The translations under genes were made by a program, and so were the position numbers. The notes beneath the pieces were generated by a model. The model ran no database searches. It saw only the letters and a list, made by a program, of their open reading frames with translations, and was not told where the DNA came from. From NCBI GenBank assembly GCA_018434325.1, contig JAHDPO010000029.1, positions 22,784 to 86,783 on the forward strand: 64,000 nt of DNA, in the 5' to 3' direction. The stretch's first letter is position 1; each line of letters opens with the position of its first letter. This DNA is from Clostridia bacterium. GTDB taxonomy: Bacteria; Bacillota; Peptococcia; DRI-13; UBA5745. Below, in pieces: positions 38,879 through 55,591 of this stretch.

Positions 38879-40351
38879 ATGAGAATCAGCGATCAGGAAA
38901 TGATGGTAAAAACCGACTTGCCATTTCACAAAGCACCGCCTTACCGCACTAAGGTAGTGGAATATACTATTCCCACTACCCGCCAGCAGCGGCAAGAAAT
39001 CATGAAGAAACACGGCTATTCCGGCCGTTTGCTCCCTGCAAAATACGTTTTCATTAACATGGTCACCGACTCCGGTACCGGCGCCATGAGCGACCGTCAG
39101 TGGTCGGCCATGATGGAAGGCGACGAGTCCTACTTCTACTGCCGCAGCTATGAGTATTTTGAAGAGGTAGCCCAGAATTATACCGGCATGCCTTATATTC
39201 TGCCCTCTCACCAGGGCCGCAGCGCCGAAGCTCCCCTTTATGAATGCCTTGTGCAGCCGGGAGATAAAGTGCCTTCCAATACCCACTTTACCACCACCAG
39301 CGCCTGGAGCTTCCAGAGGGGCGCCGAGCCGGTAGACTTTGTGGAAGTTTCCTATTTTGATCCCAATGACACCACCAGCCAGTTTAAGGGCGGCATCGAT
39401 ACGGAAGCACTGGAACGCTACTTTGAGCTGCATGCCGAGAAGATTCCCCTGGTTGACCTGGTTGTTCCCAACAACCTCAACGGCGGCATGGGCGTATCCA
39501 TGAAAGACATTAAAGAGACCCGCCGCATTATTGACAAGTACAATAAAAGAGGCACCTTGCTTTGCCTGGATATTGCCCGCATCTCCGAAAACGCCTGGAT
39601 TATCAAAAACCACGAAGAAGGCTACAAAGATAAATCTTGCGCCGAGATTGTCAGGGAAATGCTTTCTTATGCCGATTGCTGCCATATGAGTTCTAAAAAA
39701 TGCGGCTTGGTCAACATGGGCGGCTTCTCAGCAGTCAGAGACAAGCAGCTTTGGTACCGCATGCAGCCTAAGGTTATCCGCACCGACGGCTACATCACCT
39801 ACGGCGGCATGAATGGCCGCGATCTGGAAGCTCTGGCCGTTGGATTAGTGGAAGGCGTCAACGACTACTATCTCCAGGATCGCCAGCGCCAGGTAGAGTA
39901 TTTTGCCAACGCCTGCAAAAAACGGGGCGTTCACATCTTGGAGCCCGCCTCCAGCTATGCCGTTTACATCAATGCCGGCAAATGCGTACCCCATTTAGAT
40001 CACACCCAGGGCCCCGCCACTTGCTTGTCTGCCCAGGCTTATATTGAAGGCGGCTTTGCCTCCACAGCCATGGACTCCCTGCAAAGAGGCCGGATCGATC
40101 CTGAAAATCCCTTGGATACCAGCAAGCGTATTAAGGCTCCTTATGAATTGATCCGTTGCGCCATTCCCCGCCGGGCCTATTTTGAGCCTCATTATGACTG
40201 GGCTGCCGAATGCTTGGCCAGAGCTATGGCCCATGGCACCAAGCTGCCGGCCTTCAAACCCATCGCCGACGACCGTCCTCCCTTAGAAATCAGCGAGATC
40301 GGTCTGCACACCTTCTTTGACGATTACGAACCCGTTACTCCCCTCCCTTGA
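38879..40351 (+). CDS. PLP-dependent beta-eliminating lyase, tyrosine phenol-lyase/tryptophanase family, paralog 2
   Basis: Roughly half of residues are identical to paralog 1 by eye, with the same motif set (GDESY, SHQGRSAE, HFTTTSAW, LDIARISENAW, MSSKKC, IRCAIPRRAY). Strong RBS GAGGAGG. Confidence 0.85.
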   Translation: MRISDQEMMVKTDLPFHKAPPYRTKVVEYTIPTTRQQRQEIMKKHGYSGRLLPAKYVFINMVTDSGTGAMSDRQWSAMMEGDESYFYCRSYEYFEEVAQNYTGMPYILPSHQGRSAEAPLYECLVQPGDKVPSNTHFTTTSAWSFQRGAEPVDFVEVSYFDPNDTTSQFKGGIDTEALERYFELHAEKIPLVDLVVPNNLNGGMGVSMKDIKETRRIIDKYNKRGTLLCLDIARISENAWIIKNHEEGYKDKSCAEIVREMLSYADCCHMSSKKCGLVNMGGFSAVRDKQLWYRMQPKVIRTDGYITYGGMNGRDLEALAVGLVEGVNDYYLQDRQRQVEYFANACKKRGVHILEPASSYAVYINAGKCVPHLDHTQGPATCLSAQAYIEGGFASTAMDSLQRGRIDPENPLDTSKRIKAPYELIRCAIPRRAYFEPHYDWAAECLARAMAHGTKLPAFKPIADDRPPLEISEIGLHTFFDDYEPVTPLP

Positions 40352-40398
40352 TTAAATATAAATAAGCAGCCATAAAACTTATATGGAAAAGCAAAAAA

Positions 40399-40436
40399 GA
40401 GGCATTATCCCGACAAGGGATAGCGCCTCTTTTTTA
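40399..40436 (+). terminator. Rho-independent terminator
   Basis: AGAGGC...GCGCCTCT stem followed by TTTTTT. Confidence 0.75.
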
Positions 40437-40527
40437 TAATATCCGCACCTCTTAAGCTTTTCCACATATTTTATAATGAGATGGGGATAGCCTTATGCTC
40501 TAAAACGAAAAAGGAAAGAACATCATC

Positions 40528-42309
40528 ATGAATATAATGAAAAATTTATCTGTCAGCAAAAAGCTGATCCTGGGTTTTGGGATTGTGCTGATTTTGCTGA
40601 TGGCGTCGGCGACTCTGTTTATGCTTAGCATCAGCAGCATGGACAGACAAGTGAAGCTGTATGAAAACTACACTGTGCCCAACGGCGAGCATATCAGGAC
40701 TATGCAAGTGAATTTGCAAAGTACTCTCAATAAGCTATTGGAAGCCCTGGTATCGGAAGAAGCCGGCTACACCCGGGAAGCCCTGGATTTATCCCAAGCC
40801 TATGGCAAGGCTACCGCCGAGGCCTTAGCCGCATTTAAAGATAACCAGCGCAACGAAGATAGAGAAGAGGAGCTTAAAAGGCTCAGCGATATCGTAGCCG
40901 CAGCTGCTGCCAAAAGGGGGGAGATCACCAAGCTTATTCCCCTGGGGACGGCAGAGGCTCATCGCCAAGCTCTTGACCTTTATTGGCAGGAATATCGGCC
41001 CAGAATAGACCAAGTCACGGAAATTCTGCTGGATTTCTCTGCCGCACAGAAAATGCAGGCTGATCAGCAAAGCATCGATGCGGAAGCCGCCATAAGGCTG
41101 GCCTGGATCAGGTTTATCTTTTGTACTGCAATATCCCTTTTGCTGACCGTCGCCGCAGTTATGGCTATCCGGCAATCCATTCTTAAGCCGGTAAAGGAGA
41201 TAGTCAATGCCTATGAAGAAATCTCTAAGGGCAACGTCAGGACGACTATTTCCTACGACAGCAAGGATGAAATGGGCCAAATGGCTAAATTGATTCGGGA
41301 ATCCAATAAAATGCAGGGTGCTTTTATTGACGATGTGATCGAAAAATTGACGAAGATATCCAATGGGGATCTGCAAATCCAGGTGGATTTGGATTACCCC
41401 AATGATTTCCTGGCCCTTAAAACTACCATTGAAAAAACCGTAGCCAATCTTAACCGGATTATGGCCAATATCAATACTGCCGCCGGACAAGTCAGCCTGG
41501 GAGCCAGCCAGGTTGCCGGCGGCGCTCAAGCCCTGGCAGCAGGATCTACCGAACAAGCCGCTTCTCTTGAGGAACTCCATGCTTCAGCCGGCGAGATAGC
41601 CAGGCAGGCTGAACAAAACCTGACCAATGTGGAAATGGCGGCCCAACACATGGAACAGGCCAGTGCCGGCGCCGCCACCGGCAACGAGCATATGCGGCAG
41701 CTCTCGGAAGCGATGGCGGATATTGATGCTTCCTCCAGGCAGATTGTCAGCATTACTAAAGTGATTGAGGATATTGCTTTTCAAACGAATATTCTGGCTC
41801 TGAATGCCGCCATTGAAGCCGCCCGGGCAGGCGCTGCCGGCAAAGGGTTTGCGGTAGTGGCTGACGAGGTCCGCAATTTGGCGGCCAAATCCGCGGAAGC
41901 TGCCCGTCAGACAGCGGGGCTGATCCAGAATTCCGTAGATAGCGTATCCAAGGGCACGCAAATAACGGAACAAACGGCCGCAATTCTGGGGGAGGTAGGA
42001 ATAAGCACACTGAAGGTGGCGGAAAGCTTTACGAAAATCGAGGAAGCCTCCGCCCGGCAGGTCAAGGCTATTGAGCAAATCAACGAGGGACTGTCTCAAG
42101 TTTCCGCGGTGGTGCAAACGAATGCCGCCACAGCGGAAGAAAACTCCGCCACCAGTGAGGAAATGTCGGCTCAGGCCACGGCTTTGCGGGAAGAAGTAGG
42201 CCGATTCAAGCTCAGCGCTGAGTTTGGCGATGAATTCAATAACGCAGGACAAAAGGATGACAGAGCCAAGGTCATTATGCAGTACAGCCGGCAGTCAGGG
42301 AAATACTGA
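40528..42309 (+). CDS. Methyl-accepting chemotaxis protein
   Basis: Two TM segments flank a ~170-aa sensor domain, followed by HAMP. Highly conserved signalling hairpin [20 protein letters not shown]. Confidence 0.92.
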
Positions 42310-42313
42310 GCGG

Positions 42314-43870
42314 TCAGACAACCTTTGTGGTCCATTTCTCACAATTCCAGACGTCGTTGACGATATCGGTATAGAACTCCGGTTCATGGCAGACCATCAG
42401 AATGCTGCCGTTATAAGCCTGGAGAGCTTCCTTCAGAGCATCCTTGGCGTCCACGTCAAGGTGATTGGTGGGCTCGTCCAGCAGCAGCACATTGGTGGGC
42501 CGGTTGACCAGCTTGCAAAGGCGCAGCTTGGCTTGCTCACCGCCGCTGAGGACCATGACCTTGCTCTCAATGTGCTTAGTGGTCAGGCCGCATTTGGCCA
42601 AAGCTCCCCGGATCTCCCCCTGGTTCCAATCGGGAAATTCTTCCCATAATTCTTCGATACAGGTCCTGGTATTGCCGTCGGCGCTCTCCTGCTCAAAATA
42701 GCCCTGGCTGAGGAATTCCCCTGTAATCACTGTGCCGGATAAGGCGGGGATCAGGCCGAGAATGCTTTTCATCAAGGTGGTTTTGCCGATGCCGTTAGCG
42801 CCGGTGAGGGCAATTTTCTGCTTGCGCTCCATAGAAAGGGAGAGGGGGCGGGAGAGAGGGCTGTCGTAGCCGATGATCAGATCCTTCGTTTCAAAAATTG
42901 TCCGGCCCGGTGAGCGATCCTCCTTAAACTGGAAAACCGGTTTAGGGTTTTCCTTGGCCAGCTCGATAATCTCCATTTTGTCCAGCTGCTTTTGGCGGGA
43001 CATGGCCATATTGCGGGTAGCGTACCGGGCCTTATTTTTCGCCACGAATTCCTTAAGGGATTCAATCTCCTGCTGCTGGCGTTTATAAGCAGACTCCAGC
43101 TGGCTTTTGCGGGCTTCATAGGCGGCCAGGAACTCGTCGTAATCGCCGACATAGCGGGTCAGCTCGCAGTTGTCCACATGGTAAATCAGATTGACCACGC
43201 TGTTGAGAAAGGGGATATCGTGGGAGATCAGCACGAAAGCATTCTCGTATTCCTGGAGATAACGCTTCAGCCAGACGATGTGCTCTTCGTCCAGGTAGTT
43301 GGTGGGCTCGTCCAGCAGCAAAATATCCGGTTTTTCCAGCAGCAGCTTGGCGATCAGCACTTTGGTACGCTGGCCGCCGCTTAGCTCCGTCACGTCTCTG
43401 TCTAAGCCGAGATCCGTAAGTCCCAAAGCTTTAGCCACTTCGCCTACTTTAGCGTCAATCATGTAAAAGTCGTTGTGGTTCAGCAGATCCTGGATTTCGC
43501 CGACCCGCTCCATGGCCTGATCCAGGGCGGCTTCGTCCAGATCGCCCATTTGCTCGTAGAGGGAGATCATCTCCTGCTCCTGAACGAAGAGATACTCAAA
43601 AGCCGAATCAAGGATATCCTTAATGGTTTTGCCCGGCTCCAGGGTGGTATGCTGATCCAGATAGCCTATCCGAATACGGCGGGCCCATTGGATGGTCCCC
43701 TCGTCAGGCTGAAGATTGTCGGTGACAATGTTGATAAAAGTAGATTTGCCTGCTCCGTTGGCGCCGATGAGGCCGATGTGTTCCCCTTTCAGCATGCGAA
43801 AGGAGATATTGTTGAAAATGGCCCGGTCGCCGAAGCCGTGGGTCAGGTTGGATACCGTAAGAATGCTCAT
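42314..43870 (-). CDS. ABC-F family ATPase (two ABC domains, no TM domain)
   Basis: Two Walker A motifs (GANGAGKST, GANGIGKTT) and two signatures (LSGGQRTK, LSGGEQAK). A charged inter-domain linker is present. 518 aa. Confidence 0.88.
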   Translation of the reverse strand: MSILTVSNLTHGFGDRAIFNNISFRMLKGEHIGLIGANGAGKSTFINIVTDNLQPDEGTIQWARRIRIGYLDQHTTLEPGKTIKDILDSAFEYLFVQEQEMISLYEQMGDLDEAALDQAMERVGEIQDLLNHNDFYMIDAKVGEVAKALGLTDLGLDRDVTELSGGQRTKVLIAKLLLEKPDILLLDEPTNYLDEEHIVWLKRYLQEYENAFVLISHDIPFLNSVVNLIYHVDNCELTRYVGDYDEFLAAYEARKSQLESAYKRQQQEIESLKEFVAKNKARYATRNMAMSRQKQLDKMEIIELAKENPKPVFQFKEDRSPGRTIFETKDLIIGYDSPLSRPLSLSMERKQKIALTGANGIGKTTLMKSILGLIPALSGTVITGEFLSQGYFEQESADGNTRTCIEELWEEFPDWNQGEIRGALAKCGLTTKHIESKVMVLSGGEQAKLRLCKLVNRPTNVLLLDEPTNHLDVDAKDALKEALQAYNGSILMVCHEPEFYTDIVNDVWNCEKWTTKVV

Positions 43871-43949
43871 GGTTGTGCGTAGTCCTTTTATAAATTTTTA
43901 GTAGGCTGGTAAGAAGATTCCTACATTGTACTTGATGCAGCTTTGGCTG

Positions 43950-45173
43950 TCAAATCATCCAAATTGGTACAATATAATTTTGGCGATCCACTGCGGATAA
44001 TTCCTCTCGCAGGCAGAGTATAGCACCTGTACCCCGGGGGAGGGAGGCGGCGTCCAAAACTTTAAAGGTGTTTGCTAATTCACTGCCGGGCCGGGTGGAT
44101 TTCTTGATTTCCAGCGGATGCAGCATTCCATCTGCTTCGATTACCGCATCGACCTCCTTGCTGTCCCGATCCCGGTAATAGTGCATCAGGCAGTCCCGGC
44201 CTGCATTGTTATAGCTTTTGCGGATTTCGGCAACGGCATAATTCTCCAGTATCGCCCCGTTCATGGCGCCGTTCATTAAAATTTCAGGACTGCTGTATTT
44301 TGTCAGGTAGGCCACCAGCCCCGTATCAAAAAAATACAGTTTGGGAGTTTTGATGGTTCGTTTCAATAGATTGTTGAAGTAAGGGCGGAGATAAAAAATT
44401 ACGTCCGATTTCTCCAGAATGGCCAGCCAGCGTTTGGCCGTATCGGCACTGCAGCCTACATCGGAGGCAATATCATGGATGTTTAGCATCTGCCCGCAGC
44501 GGCAAGCAGCGGCCCGGATAAAATCGACGAAGGCCAGCTTATTGATGCTCTCTACCATGTCGCTGATATCACGCTCAATATAGCTTTGAAGGTAGCTGCT
44601 GTAAAAGACTTCCCTGTTCGTATATTTGCCACTGGCCATACCTGGCATAGCGCCATTCCAAATTCGTTTATAGATTTCGGCTGCATTTGCCGGCGTGCCT
44701 CTTTTGGCTCTTTCCTGCAACGTAGATAGCTCCAAAGTAAAGGGGGTATTTTCACCGCTGCCGTATATCTCATGCTGAGATAAGGCTGTTAAATGGAAAA
44801 TGGCAATCCGTCCGGCCAGAGACTCCTGGGCCAGTTCCATAAGGCGAAAGGATTGAGAGCCGGTCAGCCAAAAAGAGCCGGGAGCAGCATGGCTGTCTAT
44901 CAATATTTTAATGTAGGAGAATAGCTCCGGCGCATATTGGACTTCATCGATCAAAACCGGCGCCGGATGTAAAGATAAAAACAATGCCGGATCTTCTTTA
45001 GCCAGCTTGCGCTCATCCAGGTCATCCAAGGTCACATAATTGCGGCTGTCATCCATGAGCTGCCGCAGCATGGTGGTTTTACCCACCTGCCGGGGGCCGG
45101 TAATTAAGAGTGCCGCATACTCTTTCGAGGTATCAAGGACCAGTGTTTCAATATCTCGCTTTATATAAGACAT
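43950..45173 (-). CDS. AAA-type ATPase with C-terminal DUF4143-like domain
   Basis: Walker A GPRQVGKTT. Walker B LIDEVQ. The C-terminal part resembles DUF4143. Confidence 0.75.
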   Translation of the reverse strand: MSYIKRDIETLVLDTSKEYAALLITGPRQVGKTTMLRQLMDDSRNYVTLDDLDERKLAKEDPALFLSLHPAPVLIDEVQYAPELFSYIKILIDSHAAPGSFWLTGSQSFRLMELAQESLAGRIAIFHLTALSQHEIYGSGENTPFTLELSTLQERAKRGTPANAAEIYKRIWNGAMPGMASGKYTNREVFYSSYLQSYIERDISDMVESINKLAFVDFIRAAACRCGQMLNIHDIASDVGCSADTAKRWLAILEKSDVIFYLRPYFNNLLKRTIKTPKLYFFDTGLVAYLTKYSSPEILMNGAMNGAILENYAVAEIRKSYNNAGRDCLMHYYRDRDSKEVDAVIEADGMLHPLEIKKSTRPGSELANTFKVLDAASLPRGTGAILCLREELSAVDRQNYIVPIWMI

Positions 45174-45382
45174 AAGGTCTGTTGCCCTCCTTTTCGGCAG
45201 ATAACCGATTTGAGCTTATATTAGCCGAAAACCCAGTATTTGTCAAGGAGGCATGCTTCTAATGCGGGGCATAGCTTCGGCCCCTGATTAGTGGAACTAA
45301 CCAGAGGCCGAAGTCAGTTGAAGTCAGGAGCTTGGCAAGAAACAGAGTAGTCTTATCTGTCCCGTGCCGGTTCTGCACCATT

Positions 45383-46354
45383 TTATTTTTTTGGGGTAAA
45401 CTCCACATTGCCGGAGGTAATAACCTCATGAGCTTCCGTCACAGCCACATAGCTGATGAACTCACCGGATTCCCGGACCAATTCCTCTACCAGCTTTGTC
45501 CCGGCTTCCAGGCCCAGCATGAAAAAGGCCGTGGAAAGAAAATCCGTGTAGGCGCCGTTGGAGGAGAGGATGGATACGCTCTGGAGGGTGAGAGGCTTAG
45601 GCTCCCCCGTAAAGGGATCCAGCAAGTGGTGGTAAATACGTCCGTCTTTGCGGAAGGAATGCTCATACCACGAGGAAGTGGCTATCCCCATATCCCGCAT
45701 GGAAACAGTACCTATATAGGTGTCCGTGTCTTCCGGGTCAATGAGGGCAATACGCCAGGGATTATCTGCCTCGCCGCCGCCTTCGCTGTCCTGCCGGCCG
45801 CCAATGAGGTACAGGTTGCCTCCAAAGTCGATTACGGCGTTTTGGATACCTTCCCGCTGCAGCAGGGAGGCGACCAATCCTAGGGCATAGCCTTTGCCGG
45901 AGGCTCCCGGATCAAGAACGATGCCCGGGACATCCAGCCGCACCGACGAGCGGGTGGCATCAAGATGGATATGTTCATAACCTACGCGCTTGCGGGCTTC
46001 GGCTATCTCCTCCTGTGAGGGCACCCGGGGATCGGCGGCCAGGAAATCCCACAGCCGGATCAGAGGGCCTACAGTAGGGTCAAAAGCGCCCTTGGTGCGG
46101 CGGCAGAACATCAGGTTTAAGGCCAGAAAATCCGCCAGCATGGGGGAAATGGGATAATCTCTGCCGGGAACATAGCCGGCGCAGAGGCGGGATAGCTCCG
46201 AGGCCGGGTCATACATGCTCAGGGTGGCTTCTACCTCCAGGGCCAGCTTCTGGCCCTGATCCAAAAGAGCATCGGCCTTTTCCCGGGTTTCGGCCTCCAG
46301 CCTGATCCGGCACAAGGTATCGTAGGCAAAGAACCTGCGCTCGCCTGCTATCAC
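45383..46354 (-). CDS. apbE: FAD:protein FMN transferase (ApbE family) without signal peptide or lipobox
   Basis: ApbE strings FGGNLYLIG, TSSWYEHSF..GRIYHHLLDPFTGEP and TDFLSTAFFMLG. The likely GTG start at 46354 overlaps the upstream stop (GTGA); the track ATG is at 46420. Confidence 0.85.
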   Translation of the reverse strand: MIAGERRFFAYDTLCRIRLEAETREKADALLDQGQKLALEVEATLSMYDPASELSRLCAGYVPGRDYPISPMLADFLALNLMFCRRTKGAFDPTVGPLIRLWDFLAADPRVPSQEEIAEARKRVGYEHIHLDATRSSVRLDVPGIVLDPGASGKGYALGLVASLLQREGIQNAVIDFGGNLYLIGGRQDSEGGGEADNPWRIALIDPEDTDTYIGTVSMRDMGIATSSWYEHSFRKDGRIYHHLLDPFTGEPKPLTLQSVSILSSNGAYTDFLSTAFFMLGLEAGTKLVEELVRESGEFISYVAVTEAHEVITSGNVEFTPKK

Positions 46355-47238
46355 GCCAGGCGCCCATCCTGCATGGCTTCTGTCCGGATACGCTCGGCCA
46401 GACGCAGATAGCGATCCCACTCGGCGGAATGCTTGCGTTTTTCGGTATCCACCGTCCAGGGCAAGCCGGAAATGTCGGTGAAGTTCTGGGTGAGCAGAAC
46501 CCGTTGCTCAAGGAGATCAAATACGGAATTAAAGCCGTCGGGATAGTCCGACTCGTAGGAAACGCTGTCGTACTTGCTCATACGGTAGTATTTTTTCAGC
46601 CGTTCATCGGTGATCTCTTCAGGGGTATCCGCAAGAATCTCATTATAGAAACAACGCAAAATGCGGCCGTTTTCCACAACAACCTGGAGCCAGGCCGTGA
46701 TGCCGTCTTCGTATCTTTCCGAAAGGCCATAGTAATACTTGTTATTGGGTCTATCCAGCAGCGCGCCGATCTTGGCTGCCAAGGGCAGCAGGGAACGCTT
46801 CACGCTGTTGGAAGCGCCGGTGGCCATATCAAAATCGCCGGTCAGCCGGTTTTCCCGCAGCATCTGCCCCTCCACAGTGGTAAAGCCGTTATCCAGCACA
46901 TGGAGGGTTTGGGCGGTGCGCTCCTTGGTAGCCTGGAAGAAGCAGTATTCGCTGCGCCGTTTGGACGTATTCTGATACATCCGGGCATAGTAGGCCGGCG
47001 AGGTGTATTCGTTGAATTCCACATGAACCAACCGTCCCTCGGCGCGCACCACTTCCAGAATACCGTGATAACCCGGATCCGTGGCAAAATGGGGGGCAAA
47101 GAAGTTTTCTTCACGGAAATAGTCGCCTTTAATGAGTCCGGCAGGGGGCTGCACGGTCCAAAAGAGCTTTTCCAGTACATTTACGGTACGCTCTACGCCT
47201 TCCAAAGGCTTTTTGCCAGTCCAAGTCTTGTTTTCCAT
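46351..47238 (-). CDS. Uncharacterized cytoplasmic protein with FMN_bind-like domain and candidate flavinylation motif (paralog P1)
   Basis: 295 aa with no signal peptide or TM segment. WTVQPPAGLIKGDYF box. GILEVVRAEGRLVHVEFNE followed by FDMATGASNSV (a D-x-x-[ST]-G-A-[ST]-like motif). Second GITAWLQVVVENGRILRCFYNEI module. Confidence 0.7.
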   Translation of the reverse strand: MENKTWTGKKPLEGVERTVNVLEKLFWTVQPPAGLIKGDYFREENFFAPHFATDPGYHGILEVVRAEGRLVHVEFNEYTSPAYYARMYQNTSKRRSEYCFFQATKERTAQTLHVLDNGFTTVEGQMLRENRLTGDFDMATGASNSVKRSLLPLAAKIGALLDRPNNKYYYGLSERYEDGITAWLQVVVENGRILRCFYNEILADTPEEITDERLKKYYRMSKYDSVSYESDYPDGFNSVFDLLEQRVLLTQNFTDISGLPWTVDTEKRKHSAEWDRYLRLAERIRTEAMQDGRLA

Positions 47239-47263
47239 CGATCAGTACGCTCCTTCACATCTG

Positions 47264-47372
47264 AACATCTGCGCCCTTAATATCTTCGGATAGCGGATAC
47301 ATCTGCGCCCTTAGTTTCTACGGATAGCAGATTAAATCCGTAGGATTGAGTCCGTAGGACATCTGCGCCTTT
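47264..47372 (-). repeat. Family R2 composite repeat, second locus (one 94-nt unit plus a partial core), same orientation relative to the mRNA as at 5270-5512
   Basis: The reverse complement reads AAGGCGCAGATGT + CCTACGGACTCAATCCTACGGATTTAAT + two 33-nt cores. It abuts and overlaps the stop codon of P2. Confidence 0.88.
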
Positions 47373-48300
47373 AGTCGACGAGCACGCCGTCCTTTTTCAT
47401 TTCTGCCAGAACCACTTTGGCCATGCGCAGATAATTGGTCCAGGTGGGATACATCGGCCGCTCGCTCATATCCAGCTCTTTTTTCTCCGGATTGGGATCG
47501 TCCCACAGAGGACCTAAATCCTTGCCTGTAGCATGGGGCAGGCCGGTGAGATCCAACATATCCTGGGTGGCGCAGACCTTGAGGTTTAAGTTGTCCATCT
47601 GCGTGCGGTAGCCAACTAAAAAGGCATGGCGGTCAAAGCCGGGGGGGAAGGGATCCTCGTAGGTGGGGCAATCGTATTTGCTCTGACGGTAATACTGCTT
47701 CAGCTCCGGATGGACGATCTGCTCCGGTTCATCGGCAAAAATTTCATCGAAGCGGCAGCTGACGATTTTGCCGTTTTCCACGACCACTTTGAGCCAGCCG
47801 GTAAGGCCGTAGCCATAATCCTCACTGTAGCTGTAAATGGTTTGAGCCGAGGGCTTATCCAGCTTTTCCTGGAGCTGGGCGGCGATCTTCAGCAGTTTTT
47901 TTACGCTGCCGGAGGCGCTGGCCAGCATATCGAATTCGCCGGCCAGGCTCTGCTTTGCCATCATCTGGGCTTCCACCAGCTCCATGCCCATGGTCAGCGT
48001 GGCCTGAGCCTTCTGCATGCGCTCCTTGGTGTACTGCCAGAAGCTGTAGCTGCTGCGGCGCTTGGAAATGCCTTGATACAGGTGGTTGTAATAGCTTTCA
48101 GCCGTGATCTCGTTGAGCTCGATGAACACCAGCTTGTCGTCGTTTTTGATTACCTCTACGATGCCCAGGTGGCCGGGATCGGCGGGAAATTGGCCTTCTA
48201 CGCCTGCATAATAGGGCGGAAACCGTTCCTCGATGCGGTAATATTCGCCTTTTACCAGCCCTTTAGGGGGCTGCACAGTCCATTGCGGTATGGTTACCAT
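47371..48300 (-). CDS. Uncharacterized cytoplasmic protein with FMN_bind-like domain (paralog P2)
   Basis: 309 aa. WTVQPPKGLVKGEYY box. GIVEVIKNDDKLVFIELNE followed by FDMLASASGSV. GLTGWLKVVVENGKIVSCRFDEI module. C-terminal W..YLRMAKVV. Confidence 0.7.
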   Translation of the reverse strand: MVTIPQWTVQPPKGLVKGEYYRIEERFPPYYAGVEGQFPADPGHLGIVEVIKNDDKLVFIELNEITAESYYNHLYQGISKRRSSYSFWQYTKERMQKAQATLTMGMELVEAQMMAKQSLAGEFDMLASASGSVKKLLKIAAQLQEKLDKPSAQTIYSYSEDYGYGLTGWLKVVVENGKIVSCRFDEIFADEPEQIVHPELKQYYRQSKYDCPTYEDPFPPGFDRHAFLVGYRTQMDNLNLKVCATQDMLDLTGLPHATGKDLGPLWDDPNPEKKELDMSERPMYPTWTNYLRMAKVVLAEMKKDGVLVD

Positions 48301-48314
48301 GATCTTTGTCTCCT

Positions 48315-49307
48315 TTATTTGAGAATGCCGTCCTTAACCATTTCGTCATGAACGACTTTGGCCATGCGCAAGTAATTGTTCCAGACCGGGGAGCGGGGAC
48401 GCTCCACGCTGCGAGCCGTGGCGTCGGTGTTGGAGATCAGAGGCGTATCGTCCTTATGGGGCTTATCCCAAACCACGCCCATATCCGGGCCTTCTGCGCA
48501 GGGCAGGCCGGCGATGTCGAACATATCCTGAGTCTGGCAGACCCTGAGATTGAGCTGATCGCTGAGTTCCTTGAAGCAAACCAGCCAGGCATGGCGGTCC
48601 CAGCCTGTGGGGAAGGGATCTTCATAAGTGGAGGATTCGTATTTGCTCTGGCGGTAGAACTGCTTGAGGTCATCATAGACGATCTCGGCGGTATGGTCGG
48701 CAAAGATTTCGTCGTAGAAGCAGCGGACGATCTTGCCATCTTCCACTACTACCTGCAACCAGCCGGTAAGGCCATAGCCAAAGTCCTCCACATAGCCGTA
48801 GTACAGCTGTTTCTTGTGGTTGGGATCCTTAATCTGAGCGTCCACTTCCTTGGTGAGGCCGATCATACTCTTCATGGAGAAAGAGGCTCCGTGGAGCAGG
48901 TCAAACTCTCCGGAGAGATCCTGTTTGGCCAGGATCTGGTCTTCCACATGCTTAAAGCCATTGGCCAAAACCGTGCCGTAGGCTACGCTGCGGCGCTTGT
49001 CATGGAAATCCTGAAAGAATTGAAACTCTGTCCGGCGTTTGCTGAGGCCCTGGAAATGCCGCACATAGTAATTATCCATAGTATTCTCATTGAATTCGGC
49101 AAAGACGATCTCGCCGTCTTTCACGGCCACATCCAGCGTGCCTTTGTGGCCCTTGGCGCCCCAGCGGCCGCTGTAATACAGCTCCCCGTGGTAATAATCG
49201 CCTTTCACCAGTCCTTTATAAGGAGGCTGAGCCGTCCATTGGATCAGCTCGCTTTCATTGTCTTCATGCCAGGGGCCGCAGCCCAGCCAGCGGGTTTTGT
49301 CTGTCAT
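48315..49307 (-). CDS. Uncharacterized cytoplasmic protein with FMN_bind-like domain (paralog P3)
   Basis: 330 aa. WTAQPPYKGLVKGDYY box. GTLDVAVKDGEIVFAEFNE followed by FDLLHGASFSM. GLTGWLQVVVEDGKIVRCFYDEI module. C-terminal W..YLRMAKVV. Confidence 0.7.
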   Translation of the reverse strand: MTDKTRWLGCGPWHEDNESELIQWTAQPPYKGLVKGDYYHGELYYSGRWGAKGHKGTLDVAVKDGEIVFAEFNENTMDNYYVRHFQGLSKRRTEFQFFQDFHDKRRSVAYGTVLANGFKHVEDQILAKQDLSGEFDLLHGASFSMKSMIGLTKEVDAQIKDPNHKKQLYYGYVEDFGYGLTGWLQVVVEDGKIVRCFYDEIFADHTAEIVYDDLKQFYRQSKYESSTYEDPFPTGWDRHAWLVCFKELSDQLNLRVCQTQDMFDIAGLPCAEGPDMGVVWDKPHKDDTPLISNTDATARSVERPRSPVWNNYLRMAKVVHDEMVKDGILK

Positions 49308-49339
49308 AGGTCATTATCCTCCGTCGCGTATTATTTAGT

Positions 49340-50323
49340 TTATTCTTCGATGCCGGCCGCTTCCTTACGCAGCTCTTCTGCCCGGAAGCAAGCACAAAAA
49401 TGGTTATCGCCAAAGTCCTGGAGCGTCGGGTCCTGACCGGTGCAATAAGGGGCGGCATACAGGCAGCGCTTGGCAAAACGGCAGCCCGGTTCCGGGTTAA
49501 TCGGACTGGTCAGCTCGCCGGTAAGCTTGACCCGCTGCATCTTATGGTGAGCCCGGGGCTCCGGAATGGCGGAAAGCAACGCCTGGGAATAAGGATGCAG
49601 CGTATTGCGGAACAGCTCGTCGGAAGCAGAGGTTTCCACCAGCTGCCCCAGATACATAACGGCGATTTTATCGGAAAAATATTTGACTACAGAAAGGTCA
49701 TGGGTGATGAACAGATAGGTAAGACCGAATTCCGCCTGCAAATCTTTGAGCAGGTTCAGCACCTGGGCCTGAATGGAAACATCCAGGGAGGAAACGGGCT
49801 CGTCGCACATGATAAACTGCGGGGTCAGGGACAGGGCCCGGGCAATGCCCACCCGCTGCCGGCGGCCGCCATCCAGCTCATGGGGATAAGAGTTTTCCAG
49901 ACGCTGGCTGAGACCTACCACATCCATGAGCTCCAGCACTCGCTTATCCAGCTCCGCCCTCGAGGAGACCATCTTGTGGATAATCAGGGGCTCGCCGATG
50001 ATTTCGCTGATGGACATGCGGGGATTGAGGGAGGAGAAGGGGTCCTGGAAGATGATCTGCATCTGGCGGCGCAAGTCATGCATTTGTTGGGCGTCGGCCT
50101 TGCAGATATCCTGGCCGTTAAAGAGAATCTCGCCGCTGGTGGCGGAATGGAGCCCCAGAATCAGCCGGCCGATGGTGCTCTTGCCGCAGCCGGACTCGCC
50201 CACCAGGCCCAGGGTTTCGCCTTTGCGGATGGAGAAGTTGACATCATCTACGGCGTGGAGAGTACCCCGGTTGGTCTTAAAATATTTTTTCAAGTGTTTA
50301 ACTTCTAAAATATTATCGGCCAC
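49340..50323 (-). CDS. Opp/Dpp-type ABC ATPase (OppF-like), system 2
   Basis: Walker [10 protein letters not shown], signature LDGGRRQR and a C-terminal four-Cys extension. Confidence 0.88.
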   Translation of the reverse strand: MADNILEVKHLKKYFKTNRGTLHAVDDVNFSIRKGETLGLVGESGCGKSTIGRLILGLHSATSGEILFNGQDICKADAQQMHDLRRQMQIIFQDPFSSLNPRMSISEIIGEPLIIHKMVSSRAELDKRVLELMDVVGLSQRLENSYPHELDGGRRQRVGIARALSLTPQFIMCDEPVSSLDVSIQAQVLNLLKDLQAEFGLTYLFITHDLSVVKYFSDKIAVMYLGQLVETSASDELFRNTLHPYSQALLSAIPEPRAHHKMQRVKLTGELTSPINPEPGCRFAKRCLYAAPYCTGQDPTLQDFGDNHFCACFRAEELRKEAAGIEE

Positions 50324-51326
50324 GCTTAATCACCTCCATCAGGGTTTCGTCGGGCTGTTCCCAGCCTAAAGCAAAACAGCGCAGCTCATGGGTCGCTTCT
50401 CCGGGAATGCGGGTTACGCCGGGTTTTTTGCTGTGGCATTCCGCCCGGGCATAGGGACAGCGGGGGCTGAAGTTGCAGCCGGCGGGCAATTCCGTCGGGT
50501 CCGGCATCTGTCCTTCAATGGGAGTAAGCTTGGTGCTTTCCATGCTCAGGGTTGGTATGGAGCCAAAGAGACCGATGGTATAAGGGTGGGCCGGATGGTC
50601 AAAGACCTCCGGTATGGTGCCCTGCTCTACGATCTCCCCGGAATACATAATGGCGACCCGGTCGCAGACCTGGGCTACCACGCCCAGATCATGAGTGATC
50701 AGGAGCAGGGAGGTGTGCAGCTTTTCCTTGAGATCGTTCATCAGCTCCAGCACCTGGGCCTGAATGGTCACATCCAAAGCGGTAGTCGGTTCATCCGCAA
50801 GGATAATTTGCGGCGAGCAGGCCACGCTCATGGCGATGACTACCCGCTGCTTCATGCCGCCGGAGAATTGATGAGGGTATTCCTCATAGCGCTCTTTGGG
50901 GATGCCCACCATCTCCAGCATTTCCTCGGCTTTGCGGCGAGCTTCCTCCTTAGAGCAGTTCTCATGGAGCTGAATGACCTCGGCAATTTGAAAGCCTACG
51001 GAATAAACGGGATTTAAGCTGGTCATGGGATCCTGAAAGATCATGGAGATCTTGTTGCCCCGTACGGAGCGCAGGAGGGATTTCTTTGTTTTGAGCAGAT
51101 CTACCCCGTCAAAAAAGATTTCTCCACCCATAATTTTGCCTGGGGGGTCGGCCACCAGTTGCAAAATGCTTAGAGCGGTGGTGGTTTTCCCCGCCCCTGT
51201 TTCTCCCACTAAGCCCAGGCTCTCGCCCTGGCGCAAGTTGAGGCTCAGGCCGTTTACCGCATGGACGATTTCGCCCTGGGTGTGGTATTCTACGGTAAGA
51301 TTTTTGATTTCCAACAGGTTTTCCAT
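50313..51326 (-). CDS. Opp/Dpp-type ABC ATPase (OppD-like), system 2
   Basis: Walker [10 protein letters not shown] and signature [11 protein letters not shown] 51326 lies after GAGGA, which overlaps the upstream stop. Confidence 0.88.
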   Translation of the reverse strand: MENLLEIKNLTVEYHTQGEIVHAVNGLSLNLRQGESLGLVGETGAGKTTTALSILQLVADPPGKIMGGEIFFDGVDLLKTKKSLLRSVRGNKISMIFQDPMTSLNPVYSVGFQIAEVIQLHENCSKEEARRKAEEMLEMVGIPKERYEEYPHQFSGGMKQRVVIAMSVACSPQIILADEPTTALDVTIQAQVLELMNDLKEKLHTSLLLITHDLGVVAQVCDRVAIMYSGEIVEQGTIPEVFDHPAHPYTIGLFGSIPTLSMESTKLTPIEGQMPDPTELPAGCNFSPRCPYARAECHSKKPGVTRIPGEATHELRCFALGWEQPDETLMEVIKRGR

Positions 51327-51336
51327 ATGTATGTCC

Positions 51337-52239
51337 TCAGTTCTTGAGCTTGGGGTCCAATGCGTCGCGCAGGCCGTCCCCAAGCAGGTTCAGGGAAAGG
51401 ATGGTCAGCATGATAGCGATGCCGGGAAAGGTGCAGACCCACCAGGCAACACGGATATACTGGCGTCCATTGCTGAGCATGGAGCCCCATTCAGGTGTAG
51501 GGGGCTGAATGCCCAACCCCAGAAAACTGAGGCTGGCAATGGAGAGCACGGAGCCTGCAATGCACATGGTTGCCTGCACGATCATCGGGGCCATGGCATT
51601 GGGCAGGATGTGCTTGAATATGATGCGTCTGTCATTGGCGCCGATAGCCTGGGCCGCTTCAATGAATTCCTCGTTGCGAATGGTGATCACCGAGGAACGG
51701 ATAATGCGGGCAAAAGGCGGAATATTGGAGACCGCAATGGCGATCAGCAAATTGCGGATGCTGGAGCCCAGGGTGGCTACGATGGCAATGGCCAGCAGAG
51801 TGCTGGGGATGGCCAGAAACATATCCATTATCCGCATGATAATATTATCTGCGGTGCGGCTGCCGTAGCCGGCTATAGCGCCCAGCAGGCCGCCGATGAC
51901 GGCGGCGATCAGGATAGTAGCAAAGGCTACGGGCAGAGAAATCCGGGCGCCAAAGACGATGCGGGCCAAAATATCGCGGCCTACTTCATCGGTGCCCAGC
52001 CAGTGCTCACTGGAAGGAGGGTTGAGGCGGATGGAAGCGTTTTGCCTCACCGCCATGGCCTCGTAGTCAAAAAGCAAGTTGGCAAATATAGCAGCCAGCA
52101 CAATAACGCTGAGAATGACCAGGCCTGCCACTGCCAGCCGGTTTTGCTTAAGACGTTCCCAAACCATGACGAATTGGGACTTTTTCTTGCGCCTTTTCAC
52201 TATTGTAGTTGTTGTTATTGTTGTCATGAAATTCACCAT
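51337..52239 (-). CDS. Opp/Dpp-type ABC permease (OppC-like), system 2
   Basis: BPD_transp_1-type membrane protein, similar to the system 1 OppC-like protein. Confidence 0.85.
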   Translation of the reverse strand: MVNFMTTITTTTIVKRRKKKSQFVMVWERLKQNRLAVAGLVILSVIVLAAIFANLLFDYEAMAVRQNASIRLNPPSSEHWLGTDEVGRDILARIVFGARISLPVAFATILIAAVIGGLLGAIAGYGSRTADNIIMRIMDMFLAIPSTLLAIAIVATLGSSIRNLLIAIAVSNIPPFARIIRSSVITIRNEEFIEAAQAIGANDRRIIFKHILPNAMAPMIVQATMCIAGSVLSIASLSFLGLGIQPPTPEWGSMLSNGRQYIRVAWWVCTFPGIAIMLTILSLNLLGDGLRDALDPKLKN

Positions 52240-52244
52240 GGCTC

Positions 52245-53171
52245 CTATTTGTACTGCGCTTTGACCCGGGGGTCAAAAAAGGCATATAAAATGTCAATAA
52301 TGAGGTTAATCACCGTGAAGGAGACCGCCATGACCAACACCAGTCCCAGCACCAGCGGCGTATCCTTGAGCTTGATAGCATCCACCAGCAGCCGGCCGAT
52401 GCCCGGCCAGGAAAATACGGTTTCTACCAGCACGGCGCCGCCGAGAGCAAAGCCGAATTGCAAACCGGCGCTGGTGATGATGGGAATCATCGCGTTGCGA
52501 AGCGCATGGCGGAATACAACCACACTCTCCCTCAGGCCCTTGGCCCGGGCTGTGCGGATGTAATCCTGCCGGATGATTTCCAGCATGGAAGACCGGGTCA
52601 TACGGGTGATGGTGGCCAGGGAGTTGGCGCTGAGGGTAATAGCCGGCAGAACCAGAGATTTGAATCCCGCATCTCCGGAGGCAGGGAAAATACCCAGGTT
52701 GGCGGCCAGCAGCAGAATCAGCATAATCCCCAGCCAGAAATTAGGCATGGATACACCCAATAGCGCTACCAGCATGGAAGCGTTGTCCGTTAAAGAATAT
52801 TGCTTGACGGCGGAAACAATACCCAGGGGCATGCCCACCGCAATGGCAAAGAACAACGCCGCACCGGCCAGCCGCACCGTAGCGGGGAAGCGGGCGAAGA
52901 TTTCTGTGGTGACCGGGCGTTTGGTGGAATAGGTATTGCCCAAATCGCCTTGCAGCGCATTAAATACATATTTGGCATAACGAATGAGGAAGGGGTCATT
53001 CAAACCTAATTCTTCAGAAATCTGGTCGTGAGCCTCCTGGGAGTAATTATCCCCCAGGTAAAGCTGGACGGGATCGCCGGGCGTAAGACTCATAATAGTA
53101 AACACGATGAAGCTGACGCCTAAAAGAACGGGAATGAGCATAAATAGCCGTTTCAGGATAAATTTGTACAT
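52245..53171 (-). CDS. Opp/Dpp-type ABC permease (OppB-like), system 2
   Basis: MYKFILKRLFMLIPVLLGV N-terminus. ATG 53171 lies after GGAGA. Confidence 0.85.
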   Translation of the reverse strand: MYKFILKRLFMLIPVLLGVSFIVFTIMSLTPGDPVQLYLGDNYSQEAHDQISEELGLNDPFLIRYAKYVFNALQGDLGNTYSTKRPVTTEIFARFPATVRLAGAALFFAIAVGMPLGIVSAVKQYSLTDNASMLVALLGVSMPNFWLGIMLILLLAANLGIFPASGDAGFKSLVLPAITLSANSLATITRMTRSSMLEIIRQDYIRTARAKGLRESVVVFRHALRNAMIPIITSAGLQFGFALGGAVLVETVFSWPGIGRLLVDAIKLKDTPLVLGLVLVMAVSFTVINLIIDILYAFFDPRVKAQYK

Positions 53172-53271
53172 GGGCAAATCTCCAGATGTTTTGGACGTCG
53201 GATGAACTCCCCCCTGAGCCAAAGCTCAGGGGGAGAGATCATAAGATCGACAGAGTGATTGGTGGCAGGGC

Positions 53272-54828
53272 TTATTCGCCGATATGGGTACCGTAGATGT
53301 AATGGGTTTTGCCGGGATAGAGCTTAAAGCCATTGACGTCGGACTGCATACCGACATTGAGGTATTCGACAGCAAGAGGATACAGGGGTACGTCTTCAGC
53401 CACAATGGCCTGAATCTGCTTATACAGATCCTTGGCATGCTCGGAATCGGTGGTGGCCAAAGCTTCATCCAGCATCTGATCGATCTCCGGCACTACGTAG
53501 AAAGTACGGTTGCCGGAAGCGCCCAGGGAATCCTCGGAGTACATGGCACGCAGCATGGAGTCGGGATCGATGGAGGTCTTGGACATGAAGAAGAGCTGAT
53601 GCTCACCCTTGGAGGTAGCGGAGGTAAAGGTGGCGCCGTCCATGGATTTGATCTCCACAGTGATGCCGATCTGGCGCAGGGCCTCCTGAAGGGCCACGGA
53701 AGCATCTTTGTAAATCTGAGCATCCTGGACATAGAGAGTGCAGGAGAAACCGTTGGGATAACCTGCTTCAGCCAACAAGGCTTTGCCTTTTTCTACGTCG
53801 TAATCATAGGTAACCAGATCCGGTGCATAGCCCATGAGATAAGGACTCATCATGGTATTGCTGGCGTCTGTCGCATTGCCGTTGAAAGTGAGGGTAATGA
53901 AATCCTGTTTGTTGATAGCATGAGCCATGGCCTGGCGAACTTCTTTTTTGGAGAGAATGGGATCTTTCACGTTGGCGCCCACATACCAAACGGTGCCGGA
54001 GGTGGTGGTTGCCATCTTGAGTTTGGGATTTGCTTCTACGGTAGCGAAGTCGGTGGCGGACAGGTCGTAAGCGATATCCACTTCACCGGTCTCCAAAGCT
54101 ACAGTTCTGCTGATGCTTTCGGGAATGGTTTTGAATACCAGCGTTTTGATGGGGGAGGCGCCTGCCCAGTAATCTTCGAAGGCAGCCAGGGTGATGTCGC
54201 CGCCCAATTCCCAGGAGACGAACTTGAAGGGGCCGCAGCCTACGGGTGCAGCGTTGAAATCAGAAGTGCTTTCAGCGGCAGCTTTGGAAACGATGGAAGC
54301 GGCGTCCAAAGTGAGCCGGTAAAGCAGAACGCTGCAGGGCTCGGAGGTGACGATCTCCACGGTATTCTCATCGATAACGTTGATTTCGCTGATGATCAGG
54401 TAGTTGTAATTGACGCCGGCGCTGGCAATGCAGCGCTCCAGGGAATACTTGACGTCTTCGGCGGTCATGGTGTTGCCGTCATGGAATTTTACGCCCTTGC
54501 GCAGGTGGAATACGGTGGTCGTAGCATCCTTGATATCCCAGGATTCGGCCAGGGTAGGCACCAGGTTCATGTCTGCATCCAGCTCGACCAGGCGGTCAAA
54601 AATCTGGGTGACGACCCGGAAAGTACCGATGGTTGCCTGAATATGGGGATCTACATAGGTAGGTGTTTCCGGAATGGCGACGATTAGTTTGTCCCTGGCA
54701 GGGGTTCCGGCAGAGCCCTGCGGAGAGGTTGCAGCCGGTTGAGTTGCGGCAGTACCGCCGGAGCCGCCACAACCGGCCATTGCCAATACGAAGGCAACGA
54801 TGAGCAGCGAAGTTACGATTTTTTTCAT
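53272..54828 (-). CDS. Family-5 substrate-binding lipoprotein, system 2 (ligand unknown)
   Basis: Lipobox LAMAGCGG and SBP_bac_5-like sequence. ATG 54828 lies after GGAGGA; the track uses TTG 54837. Confidence 0.85.
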   Translation of the reverse strand: MKKIVTSLLIVAFVLAMAGCGGSGGTAATQPAATSPQGSAGTPARDKLIVAIPETPTYVDPHIQATIGTFRVVTQIFDRLVELDADMNLVPTLAESWDIKDATTTVFHLRKGVKFHDGNTMTAEDVKYSLERCIASAGVNYNYLIISEINVIDENTVEIVTSEPCSVLLYRLTLDAASIVSKAAAESTSDFNAAPVGCGPFKFVSWELGGDITLAAFEDYWAGASPIKTLVFKTIPESISRTVALETGEVDIAYDLSATDFATVEANPKLKMATTTSGTVWYVGANVKDPILSKKEVRQAMAHAINKQDFITLTFNGNATDASNTMMSPYLMGYAPDLVTYDYDVEKGKALLAEAGYPNGFSCTLYVQDAQIYKDASVALQEALRQIGITVEIKSMDGATFTSATSKGEHQLFFMSKTSIDPDSMLRAMYSEDSLGASGNRTFYVVPEIDQMLDEALATTDSEHAKDLYKQIQAIVAEDVPLYPLAVEYLNVGMQSDVNGFKLYPGKTHYIYGTHIGE

Positions 54829-54858
54829 TCTTGTCAATCCTCCATGTTGTTAATTAAG

Positions 54859-55504: not shown

Positions 55505-55542
55505 GCTCTTCCCGTATACTTTTTGCGTACTTTCAGGAGATA

Positions 55543-55581: not shown

Positions 55582-55591
55582 CGATTAATCA

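Follow-up and report, generated by a model that had tools for sequence, protein, structure and literature searches.

Gene organization of the locus

We analysed a 64,000-nt stretch of DNA (hereafter the window) from contig JAHDPO010000029.1 of a Clostridia bacterium (GenBank assembly GCA_018434325.1), which carries genes for three related proteins, here called P1, P2 and P3, together with those for an ATP-binding cassette (ABC) importer and an ApbE, an enzyme that transfers flavin mononucleotide (FMN) from flavin adenine dinucleotide (FAD) to proteins. The nine genes are tightly packed on the minus strand as an operon in the order solute-binding protein (SBP), two permeases, two ATPases, P3, P2, P1 and ApbE. 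The genes and the motifs considered below are as follows.

53272-54837, minus strand: SBP_bac_5 lipoprotein (SBP of an Opp/Dpp/Nik-type ABC importer), first gene of the operon; lipobox in the N-terminus MKKIVTSLLIVAFVLAMAGC
52245-53222, minus strand: OppB-like ABC permease; orthologues at the same position (loci L010 and L090-L092, matched by phmmer) carry BPD_transp_1_N and BPD_transp_1
51337-52239, minus strand: OppC-like ABC permease; orthologues carry OppC_N and BPD_transp_1
50313-51383, minus strand: OppD-like ABC ATPase with a C-terminal Cys-rich oligo_HPY-type tail; orthologues carry ABC_tran and oligo_HPY
49340-50323, minus strand: OppF-like ABC ATPase with a C-terminal Cys-rich tail; assigned from the open reading frame (ORF) and its orthologues
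48315-49307, minus strand: P3, 330 aa, tandem FMN_bind-like protein, no signal peptide; predicted acceptor Ser142
48876-48902, minus strand: ApbE-type motif DLLHGASFS of P3; Ser142 codon at 48882-48884, checked by translation
47371-48300, minus strand: P2, 309 aa, tandem FMN_bind-like protein, no signal peptide; candidate acceptor Ser130
47905-47931, minus strand: motif DMLASASGS of P2, with Ser in place of Gly; Ser130 codon at 47911-47913, checked by translation
46351-47238, minus strand: P1, 295 aa, tandem FMN_bind-like protein, no signal peptide; predicted acceptor Ser143
46804-46830, minus strand: ApbE-type motif DMATGASNS of P1; Ser143 codon at 46810-46812, checked by translation
45383-46354, minus strand: ApbE-family FAD:protein FMN transferase, 323 aa, no signal peptide; Pfam PF02424, E 7.5e-68

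The ApbE gene adjoining P1 had been recognised in a preliminary description of this DNA, and the Pfam match listed above confirmed it. Its probable GTG start at 46354 overlaps the stop codon of P1 as GTGA, from which ApbE is predicted to be translationally coupled to P1, and the protein begins at the catalytic domain; the longest ApbE ORF has a 70-nt overlap with P1. The intergenic gaps between OppF and P3, P3 and P2, and P2 and P1 are 32, 14 and 132 nt, respectively.

Within the unusually long P2-P1 spacer (47239-47370) lies a 94-nt tandem intergenic repeat, with the core AGGGCGCAGATGT plus TCCGCTATCCGTAGA and CCTACGGACTCAA, of which about 1.4 units are present. At least 2.5 units of this repeat are also found at 5277-5512, between two genes, and the core was matched 8 times in the window against 0.08 matches expected. 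It looks like a genome-specific element of the repetitive extragenic palindrome or bacterial interspersed mosaic element (REP/BIME) kind that was inserted in the operon. Its position might influence the relative levels at which P1 and ApbE are expressed. The leader of the SBP gene (54859-55274) contains four copies of a 31-33-nt unit (GCTCAAAAATCGTAGTTGTGTG...) spaced 62-63 nt, of which those at 54918 and 54980 have one orientation and those at 55046 and 55108 the other, as well as a perfect 17-nt inverted repeat (54859-54875/55151-55167) and a perfect 14-nt one (54856-54869/55257-55270). The 31-33-nt unit occurs nowhere else in the window, is absent from a 94%-identical relative (locus L012) and has no Rfam match; the copies could form an array of operators or derive from a small mobile element that was inserted. 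A search of Rfam at the gathering threshold gave no match in the window from 40000 to 60000, and scans for promoter and terminator consensus sequences gave matches at chance level.

The closest relative of the SBP in the PDB is 5u4o, an uncharacterised SBP (2.4e-81), followed by AgaA, HbpA, YliB and DppA. The two ATPases (49340-51383) end in Cys-rich tails, for example ...FCAC and GCNFSPRCPYARAEC...RC. Tails of this kind in Opp/Dpp ATPases are reported to bind [4Fe-4S] iron-sulphur (Fe-S) clusters, which makes those of OppD and OppF of possible interest given the putative flavoprotein genes directly downstream.

P1, P2 and P3 are diverged paralogs

The preliminary description had regarded P1, P2 and P3 as clear paralogs, and the comparison of the three proteins bore this out. 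Pairwise blastp alignments extended over nearly the full length with E-values of 8e-81 for P1/P2, 7e-69 for P1/P3 and 2e-104 for P2/P3, and the identities to P1 in the alignment were 47% for P2 and 45% for P3. We concluded that they are anciently diverged paralogs of a small, unnamed family.

The sequence boxes that had been pointed out were also recovered, with one small correction. The N-terminal box WT[VA]QPP...GL[IV]KG[DE]Y is present in all three proteins, but P3 has two residues (YK) between PP and GL where a single one had been given. The beta segment EVV..G.LV..EFNE is present, and the acceptor motif follows it after about 59 residues. The second segment, G[IL]T[GA]WLxVVVE.G.I..C...EI, lies in a second module that does not contain the ApbE motif, and W..YLR[ML]A is found at the C-terminus of each protein. 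Since the same three orthologous groups occur in the same order in other genomes, the boxes and the paralogy are not a chance pattern.

The acceptor position is conserved in the family

The published motif for flavinylation by ApbE is D-x-x-[S/T]-G-A-[S/T] (PMC12052999). All three proteins had been thought to fit it, with Ser as the acceptor. P1 (DMATGAS) and P3 (DLLHGAS) can be counted as fitting, and P2 (DMLASAS) fits only in part, as its Gly is replaced by Ser. Conservation of the motif was counted in 216 unique near-full-length relatives. The acceptor position is occupied by Ser in 209 of these and by Thr in the other 7, as the preliminary description required of a true acceptor; the residue before it is Ala in 187, the motif Asp is present in 184, and the motif Gly in 171, with Ser in its place in 41. 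In the 59-sequence alignment of the family the Ala-Ser at the acceptor is invariant. The members with Gly changed to Ser are those of the P2 clade, with the motif D-x-x-A-S-A-S-G-S, and a few members have T or N at this position. A Gly to Ala change at the same position lowered flavinylation in the fumarate reductase of Klebsiella pneumoniae (PMC12052999). Judged by their sequences, the module-1 Ser of P1 (Ser143) and of P3 (Ser142) is likely to be flavinylated, and flavinylation of P2 at Ser130 is uncertain.

Each protein resembles a tandem of two FMN_bind modules

Scans of P1-P3 with Pfam and NCBIfam models gave only noise (DUF1707, Molybdopterin_N and IF-1A). A database search with P2 yielded 137 relatives, of which 59 were aligned (alignment A2) and used as the basis of a family profile. 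When this profile was compared with the PDB, module 1 (profile positions 42-155) matched CPE2226 (3O6U) with an E-value of 0.0072, and the D-x-x-x-G-A-S of the family fell in register on DVITGAT of 3O6U in the profile alignment. Module 2 (profile positions 157-278) aligned to the whole of 2KZX (E 0.024). Comparison of the two modules with each other by hhalign gave an E-value of 1.7e-5 over the sheet core, i.e. an internal duplication, in agreement with the two-module architecture that had been proposed.

The AlphaFold2 (AF2) model of P2 was confident, with a predicted local distance difference test score (pLDDT) of 93.1 and a predicted template modelling score (pTM) of 0.91, and both modules were predicted as a single rigid body at this pTM. 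In a Foldseek search of the PDB with the whole P2 model the sole convincing match was 3O6U (probability 1.00; target-normalised TM-score, TMt, 0.67). With module 2 modelled alone (pLDDT 88.4), three chains of 3O6U came first (probability 0.99-1.00) and 2KZX came fourth. Across the models the TMt to 3O6U was 0.62-0.67 and the E-values ranged from 2e-3 to 5e-2. The models have the fold of 3O6U, a three-stranded sheet with helices. The similarity to FMN_bind on which the preliminary description depended was thus found both by profile (3O6U and 2KZX) and by structure (3O6U).

The family is also linked to canonical FMN_bind proteins. Seven of the 59 aligned members match PF04205 weakly, and one of them, P0108, reaches 24.5 bits across the motif, above the gathering score of 22 bits. 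A search of 1.84 billion representatives with the family profile returned 147 clusters, and the weaker matches, which were in several stretches, were proteins with several canonical FMN_bind domains that are themselves PF04205-positive above the gathering score (whole-library E 6e-15 to 1e-5).

In the P2 model helix 131-144, the last helix of module 1, is immediately preceded by the motif; in module 2 the corresponding stretch ahead of helix 286-304 reads W-x-x-Y-L-R-[ML]-A. Within module 1 of P2, strands 14-26 and 45-53 are separated by a loop of 18 residues, and about 36 residues separate strand 56-65 from helix 102-116. The family is most strongly conserved in module 2 (DEIFAD and YRQSKY), a hint of a further site that could bind a flavin, a substrate or a partner. 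Taken together, the PDB profile match, the AF2 and Foldseek results, the behaviour of module 2 alone, the internal duplication and the link to canonical PF04205 proteins lend computational support to the view that each protein is a tandem of two diverged FMN_bind-type modules, of which only module 1 carries the motif.

The proteins are predicted to be cytosolic and are paired with ApbE

No hydrophobic N-terminal segment was found in P1-P3 or ApbE, where the maximal 19-residue Kyte-Doolittle value was at most 1.02, as compared with 2.26 for the SBP lipoprotein. A cytosolic location of P1-P3 and ApbE is therefore supported by computation. We also considered whether the proteins of the window could be extracytosolic like PplA of Listeria; this was rejected, as neither P1-P3 nor ApbE has an export signal. 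The cytosolic location and the importer at the head of the operon go beyond what the preliminary description contained.

To classify the loci of relatives, we used our own ORF calling and heuristic signal-peptide calls, and four loci (L032, L063, L065 and L067) were moved to the secreted class after inspection of their N-termini by eye. This gave 28 cytosolic loci (initially 32) and 54 secreted loci. A signal-less ApbE lies within 7 kb in 23 of the 28 cytosolic loci and farther along the locus in 2, the other 3 being short or cut contigs, whereas only 4 of the 54 secreted loci have an adjacent ApbE. Two or three paralogs per locus were found at 15 cytosolic loci and at none of the secreted ones. 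The ApbEs beside cytosolic relatives all begin at the catalytic domain, and those beside the secreted members of Ferrimonas and Marinobacter have signal peptides.

The lipoprotein or secreted members form a monophyletic branch, with hosts that include Fusobacterium, Cetobacterium, Desulfitobacterium, Paenibacillus, Halolactibacillus, oral Treponema, Enterococcus, Shewanella, Ferrimonas and Mycoplasmatota. Two variants were seen among them. The lipoproteins of Enterococcus, Vagococcus and Pseudolactococcus (L068-L082; about 348 aa) have a canonical D-V-V-T-G-A-T-Q-T in a short N-terminal extension, and the core motif position reads F-E-T-V-K-G-S-S-T-T; here the likely flavinylation site has apparently moved or been duplicated. 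A secreted group of 447-478 aa from Ferrimonas, Marinobacter, Shewanella and Mycoplasmatota (L083-L087, L085, L089 and the P0132 cluster) has an extra canonical FMN_bind domain (D-A-V-S-G-A-T) before the tandem core (D-I-V-A-G-A-S-N-S), and in Ferrimonas this long version adjoins an ApbE with a signal peptide, a porin and a two-component system.

The pairing with ApbE bears on whether the motif means anything at all. If its likeness to an ApbE site were incidental, P1-P3 would be unflavinylated, non-redox proteins, such as a cytoplasmic binding protein or chaperone for the solute, and ApbE would have another substrate. That P1-P3 have no direct Pfam or NCBIfam match and that the motif of P2 is non-canonical would suit this explanation. 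We nevertheless regard it as highly improbable: the acceptor Ala-Ser is invariant in the 59 aligned members and Ser or Thr occupies the site in 216 of 216 relatives, the motif is in register with that of 3O6U, and essentially every cytosolic member on an adequately long contig is accompanied by a signal-less ApbE, whose start here overlaps the stop of P1. Nor is there any other candidate substrate of ApbE in the operon.

Gene context of the relatives

The loci of the relatives fall into several types. Type A is the arrangement of the window, SBP5-OppBCDF-P3-P2-P1-ApbE. It recurs in a 94%-identical Clostridia metagenome-assembled genome (MAG; JAHDMJ01), several Oscillospiraceae, other Clostridia and Flexilinea, as well as on a MAG contig of 344 kb that has been deposited under two names, Sphaerochaeta and Anaerolineaceae. 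In these operons of relatives neighbouring genes overlap or lie 1-20 nt apart, and P1 is sometimes located before the SBP or missing. A LysR regulator is often found upstream, and a LysR-type regulator is the only extra gene that recurs around the orthologous operons; OsmC, Fer4 and DJ-1 neighbours were each seen once.

In type B, found in Hungatella, Schaedlerella and gut metagenomes, a regulator and an SBP_bac_1 ABC importer are accompanied by ApbE, one or two family members, a PyrK-like and a PyrD-like gene. In type C a P1-like member is fused to a PyrK-like domain and followed by a PyrD-like gene, with ApbE nearby. Locus L026 is a bridging cluster in which ApbE fragments and PyrK-like and PyrD-like genes occur together with SBP5-OppBCDF and with one P3-like and one P1-like gene. 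In type D the gene for a lipoprotein member comes directly after those for a histidine kinase and an AraC-type response regulator. The Ferrimonas locus consists of a two-component system, a porin, ApbE and the family member, and no electron-transfer membrane protein was seen at the Ferrimonas and Mycoplasmatota loci.

PyrK-like and PyrD-like genes adjoin a family member at loci L001, L007, L020-L025, L026, L042, L046, L048, L049, L052, L055 and L056. The PyrK-like genes beside cytosolic members (L007, L020-L026, L042, L046 and L048) keep the C-G-x-G-A-C-x-x-C...C [2Fe-2S] motif. The PyrK-like protein of L007 (gene at 10961-11683), the only one that was aligned to PyrK of Lactococcus lactis, has S-P-V-M in place of the R-P-I-S FAD motif (R-x-x-S). 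This loss suggests that the covalent FMN protein substitutes for the module for FAD and nicotinamide adenine dinucleotide (NAD) of an enzyme like dihydroorotate dehydrogenase B (DHOD-B). The PyrD-like proteins belong to the DHO_dh family and lie below the dihydroorotate dehydrogenase equivalog cut-off (181 vs 269 bits).

In a neighbour-joining tree P1, P2 and P3 form distinct orthologous clades. P1 groups with the PyrK-fusion proteins. The sister group of the P3 clade is formed by the PyrK-adjacent members, and it is the P3 gene that invariably comes first among the paralogs behind OppF. The P2 clade is confined to type A, where the operon is linked to the importer.

These relationships raise the alternative that P1-P3 are electron-relay subunits of a PyrK/PyrD-like (DHOD-B-like) reductase encoded elsewhere in the genome, the operon being incomplete and the TIM-barrel FMN enzyme reducing a C=C bond of the imported compound. 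Relatives of P1 and P3 do adjoin or are fused to PyrK-like and PyrD-like proteins, and L026 brings such genes together with SBP5-OppBCDF, P3-like and P1-like genes, on the same MAG contig that also carries a cluster without PyrK/PyrD. On the other hand, no PyrK-like or PyrD-like gene was found in the 64-kb window, and at least 10 independent importer-linked operons also have none within 10 kb. Moreover, the P2 clade is present only where PyrK/PyrD are absent, which suggests a different solution and not a missing partner. We consider this alternative unlikely.

Proposed function of the operon

In our reading, which we hold to be reasonably probable, P1-P3 form a hetero-oligomeric flavoprotein in the cytosol that is flavinylated by ApbE and acts by redox chemistry on a solute delivered by the co-encoded ABC importer. 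ApbE would transfer FMN from FAD to the module-1 Ser in the cytoplasm, and P1, P2 and P3 would assemble into a multi-flavin protein. The conserved gene order, the 1:1:1 gene content and the overlapping or near-overlapping genes in relatives lead us to infer the hetero-oligomer. The covalent FMNs would then pass electrons to, or take them from, a small solute imported by the Opp/Dpp-type importer, either directly or via a PyrK/PyrD-like enzyme as in relatives; in these relatives electrons appear to enter through the family member, in place of the FAD/NAD module that PyrK has lost. As relatives are adjacent or fused to PyrK-like proteins that have no FAD motif, next to a PyrD-like FMN enzyme, the most likely role of the covalent FMN by analogy would be that of an entry or relay flavin for a cytosolic reductase.

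Several observations weigh against this proposal. None of P1, P2 and P3 matches PF04205 even at E ≤ 1, no NCBIfam model is matched by them, and the E-values that tie the family to solved structures are modest (about 1e-2 to 2e-3 for the PDB and Foldseek searches). P2 and its whole clade carry S, T or N for the motif Gly. The case for hetero-oligomerisation consists of gene order and tight spacing. The operon of the window and most operons of its type encode no nicotinamide-binding, Fe-S or catalytic redox protein. Finally, the SBP gives no clue to the ligand, as its similarity is only generic and its NCBIfam matches (GsiB, NikA and DppA) are all far under the cut-offs.

A more specific version of the proposal would take the nine-gene module as encoding a self-sufficient cytosolic enzyme of a kind not recognised before, a heterotrimer of single-site tandem FMN_bind proteins with up to three covalent FMNs and no nicotinamide-binding or Fe-S subunit of its own, which reduces or oxidises the imported solute and is possibly docked on the Cys-rich tails of OppD/OppF, which probably bind Fe-S clusters. 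We put this forward as a tentative idea and doubt that it is correct. If it were true, the docking would couple transport to redox chemistry, and flavinylation by ApbE would gain a nutrient-processing role inside the cell, the compartment that large surveys excluded by design.

It is also conceivable that the P1-P2-P3 assembly is itself the terminal enzyme, i.e. a free-standing cytosolic reductase of a metal chelate, a quinone- or flavin-like compound or an oxidised peptide-like solute, with exposed covalent FMN like that of the extracellular PplA and reduced by a general donor. The module of nine genes is conserved and complete in itself, the most conserved residues (DEIFAD and YRQSKY) lie in module 2, consistent with a second ligand site, and the SBP is related to binders of Ni, heme, opine and glutathione; in addition, the secreted relatives stand alone beside two-component sensors or, in Ferrimonas, beside a porin and ApbE, again linked to solutes. 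However, there is no recognisable donor-binding domain and no clue to the substrate, the characterised FMN_bind domains have so far been relays and not catalysts (PMC8238504, PMC12052999), and the regulator that accompanies several such operons is LysR-type and not metal-responsive. We therefore judge this alternative to be improbable.

Comparison with known flavinylated proteins

The closest solved proteins are those of the compact FMN-bind1 type, C. perfringens CPE2226 (3O6U), which Huang et al. 2024 (PMC11334425) took as their flavinylated reference for 'FMN-bind1', and C. thermocellum A3DHT5 (2KZX). Their fold is common to both modules of P1-P3, as is a Lys/Arg...Tyr insertion between the sheet and the helices. 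In contrast to FMN-bind1, P1-P3 are fused module pairs with extra insertions and with the motif in the first module only, are missed by PF04205, have no export signals and occur as three paralogs.

The FMN-bind2 domain is about 160 aa in size, has insertions between beta1 and beta2 and between beta3 and alpha1, and is found as two domains packed as one unit (PMC11334425). To judge from the AF2 model of P2, P1-P3 may resemble FMN-bind2 (NTW96865.1) in the size of the modules (about 150-160 aa), in the two places of the insertions and in the predicted pairing of the modules as a rigid unit; like P1-P3, FMN-bind2 lies outside Pfam/InterPro (PMC11334425). FMN-bind2 is described as two-site and extracytosolic (PMC11334425), whereas P1-P3 have one site and no signal peptide, a distinction that is drawn from the descriptions; at the place where a second site would be expected, module 2 of P1-P3 holds W-x-x-Y-L-R-[ML]-A. 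In a cluster look-up of ten relatives the FMN-bind2 exemplars NTW96865.1 and WP_312031774.1 (Table S1) did not surface.

PplA of the extracellular electron transfer system of Listeria (PMC8238504, PMC12052999) is similar in build to P1-P3, with about 300 aa and two FMN_bind-type modules, and is flavinylated by an ApbE-family enzyme. Both of its modules are flavinylated, canonical PF04205 domains at the cell surface (PMC8238504), whereas P1-P3 are predicted to be cytosolic with one site each. The lipoprotein members of the family in Fusobacterium, Desulfitobacterium, Paenibacillus and Treponema may work similarly to PplA. As mentioned above, relatives of P1 and P3 adjoin or are fused to proteins like the subunits of DHOD-B (PyrK/PyrD, PDB 1EP1-1EP3), with the differences that the PyrK-like protein is without R-x-x-S, that the PyrD-like protein scores below the equivalog cut-off and that neither is encoded in the window.

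Fumarate, acrylate and cinnamate reductases contain FAD_binding_2 and old yellow enzyme (OYE)-like NADH-oxidising domains. Scans of P1-P3, the rest of the operon and ten flanking genes revealed no such domain. A cytosolic ApbE is known from the NADH:fumarate reductase of K. pneumoniae (PMC12052999), and the acrylate reductase of Vibrio harveyi and the heterodimeric cinnamate reductase of Vibrio ruber are reported as further cytoplasmic cases (10.1101/2022.01.20.477176; 10.1101/2023.03.04.531086). In these enzymes an FMN_bind-type module is modified by a signal-less ApbE, as proposed here; the reductase is soluble and uses a small organic acceptor, and its covalent FMN serves as an internal electron relay. 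The present family differs in that its partners, where present in relatives, are PyrK-like and PyrD-like and in that its genes are tied to ABC importers.

The main survey of ApbE flavinylation left out all proteins without a signal peptide (PMC8238504), and the current review lists few cytosolic cases, all of them fumarate-reductase-like (PMC12052999). In the literature we found no description of the family or of the importer/ApbE module. Some lipoprotein members are automatically named 'FMN-binding domain-containing protein' in UniRef, so a general kinship with FMN-binding proteins is not new. The fold, and the chemistry that goes with it, are those of ApbE-flavinylated FMN_bind proteins.

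Other genes of the window

No redox partner was found among the ten flanking genes of the window that were scanned. These include two beta-eliminating lyases, a YheO-like regulator, an AAA/DUF4143 protein, a GMP-synthase-like protein and DcuC, and further an M20 peptidase, a sigma-54 activator, a SAICAR synthase and a DUF234 protein. The region 30285-40351 contains a second Opp-type operon (permeases, ATPases and SBP) at 30285-35856, then the YheO-like PAS/HTH regulator (36126-36809), which is followed by the two lyases, tandem paralogs of the tryptophanase/tyrosine phenol-lyase family (37314-38795 and 38879-40351). The GMP-synthase-like gene (55592-56938; 448 aa) encodes ATP-pyrophosphatase and GMP_synt_C parts. 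The first approximately 140 residues of its product gave no Pfam glutamine amidotransferase domain at E ≤ 1e-5, and this N-terminus may be a degenerate glutamine amidotransferase.

Significance of the family

Flavinylation by ApbE has so far been mapped almost entirely outside the cytosol. The locus described here defines a separate and rare family without a Pfam or NCBIfam model, in which, as far as sequences and models indicate, one presumably active FMN_bind module is joined to a degenerate one. Its cytosolic branch is paired with a signal-less ApbE, comprises two or three co-ordered paralogs, and is tied to solute importers; in relatives there is a further link to DHOD-B-like reductases. 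The family, if confirmed, would represent a new class of ApbE substrate and would show that covalent attachment does more than guard against flavin loss outside the cell. It would also indicate that gut and digester Clostridia carry out a catabolic or respiratory reaction that has yet to be characterised.

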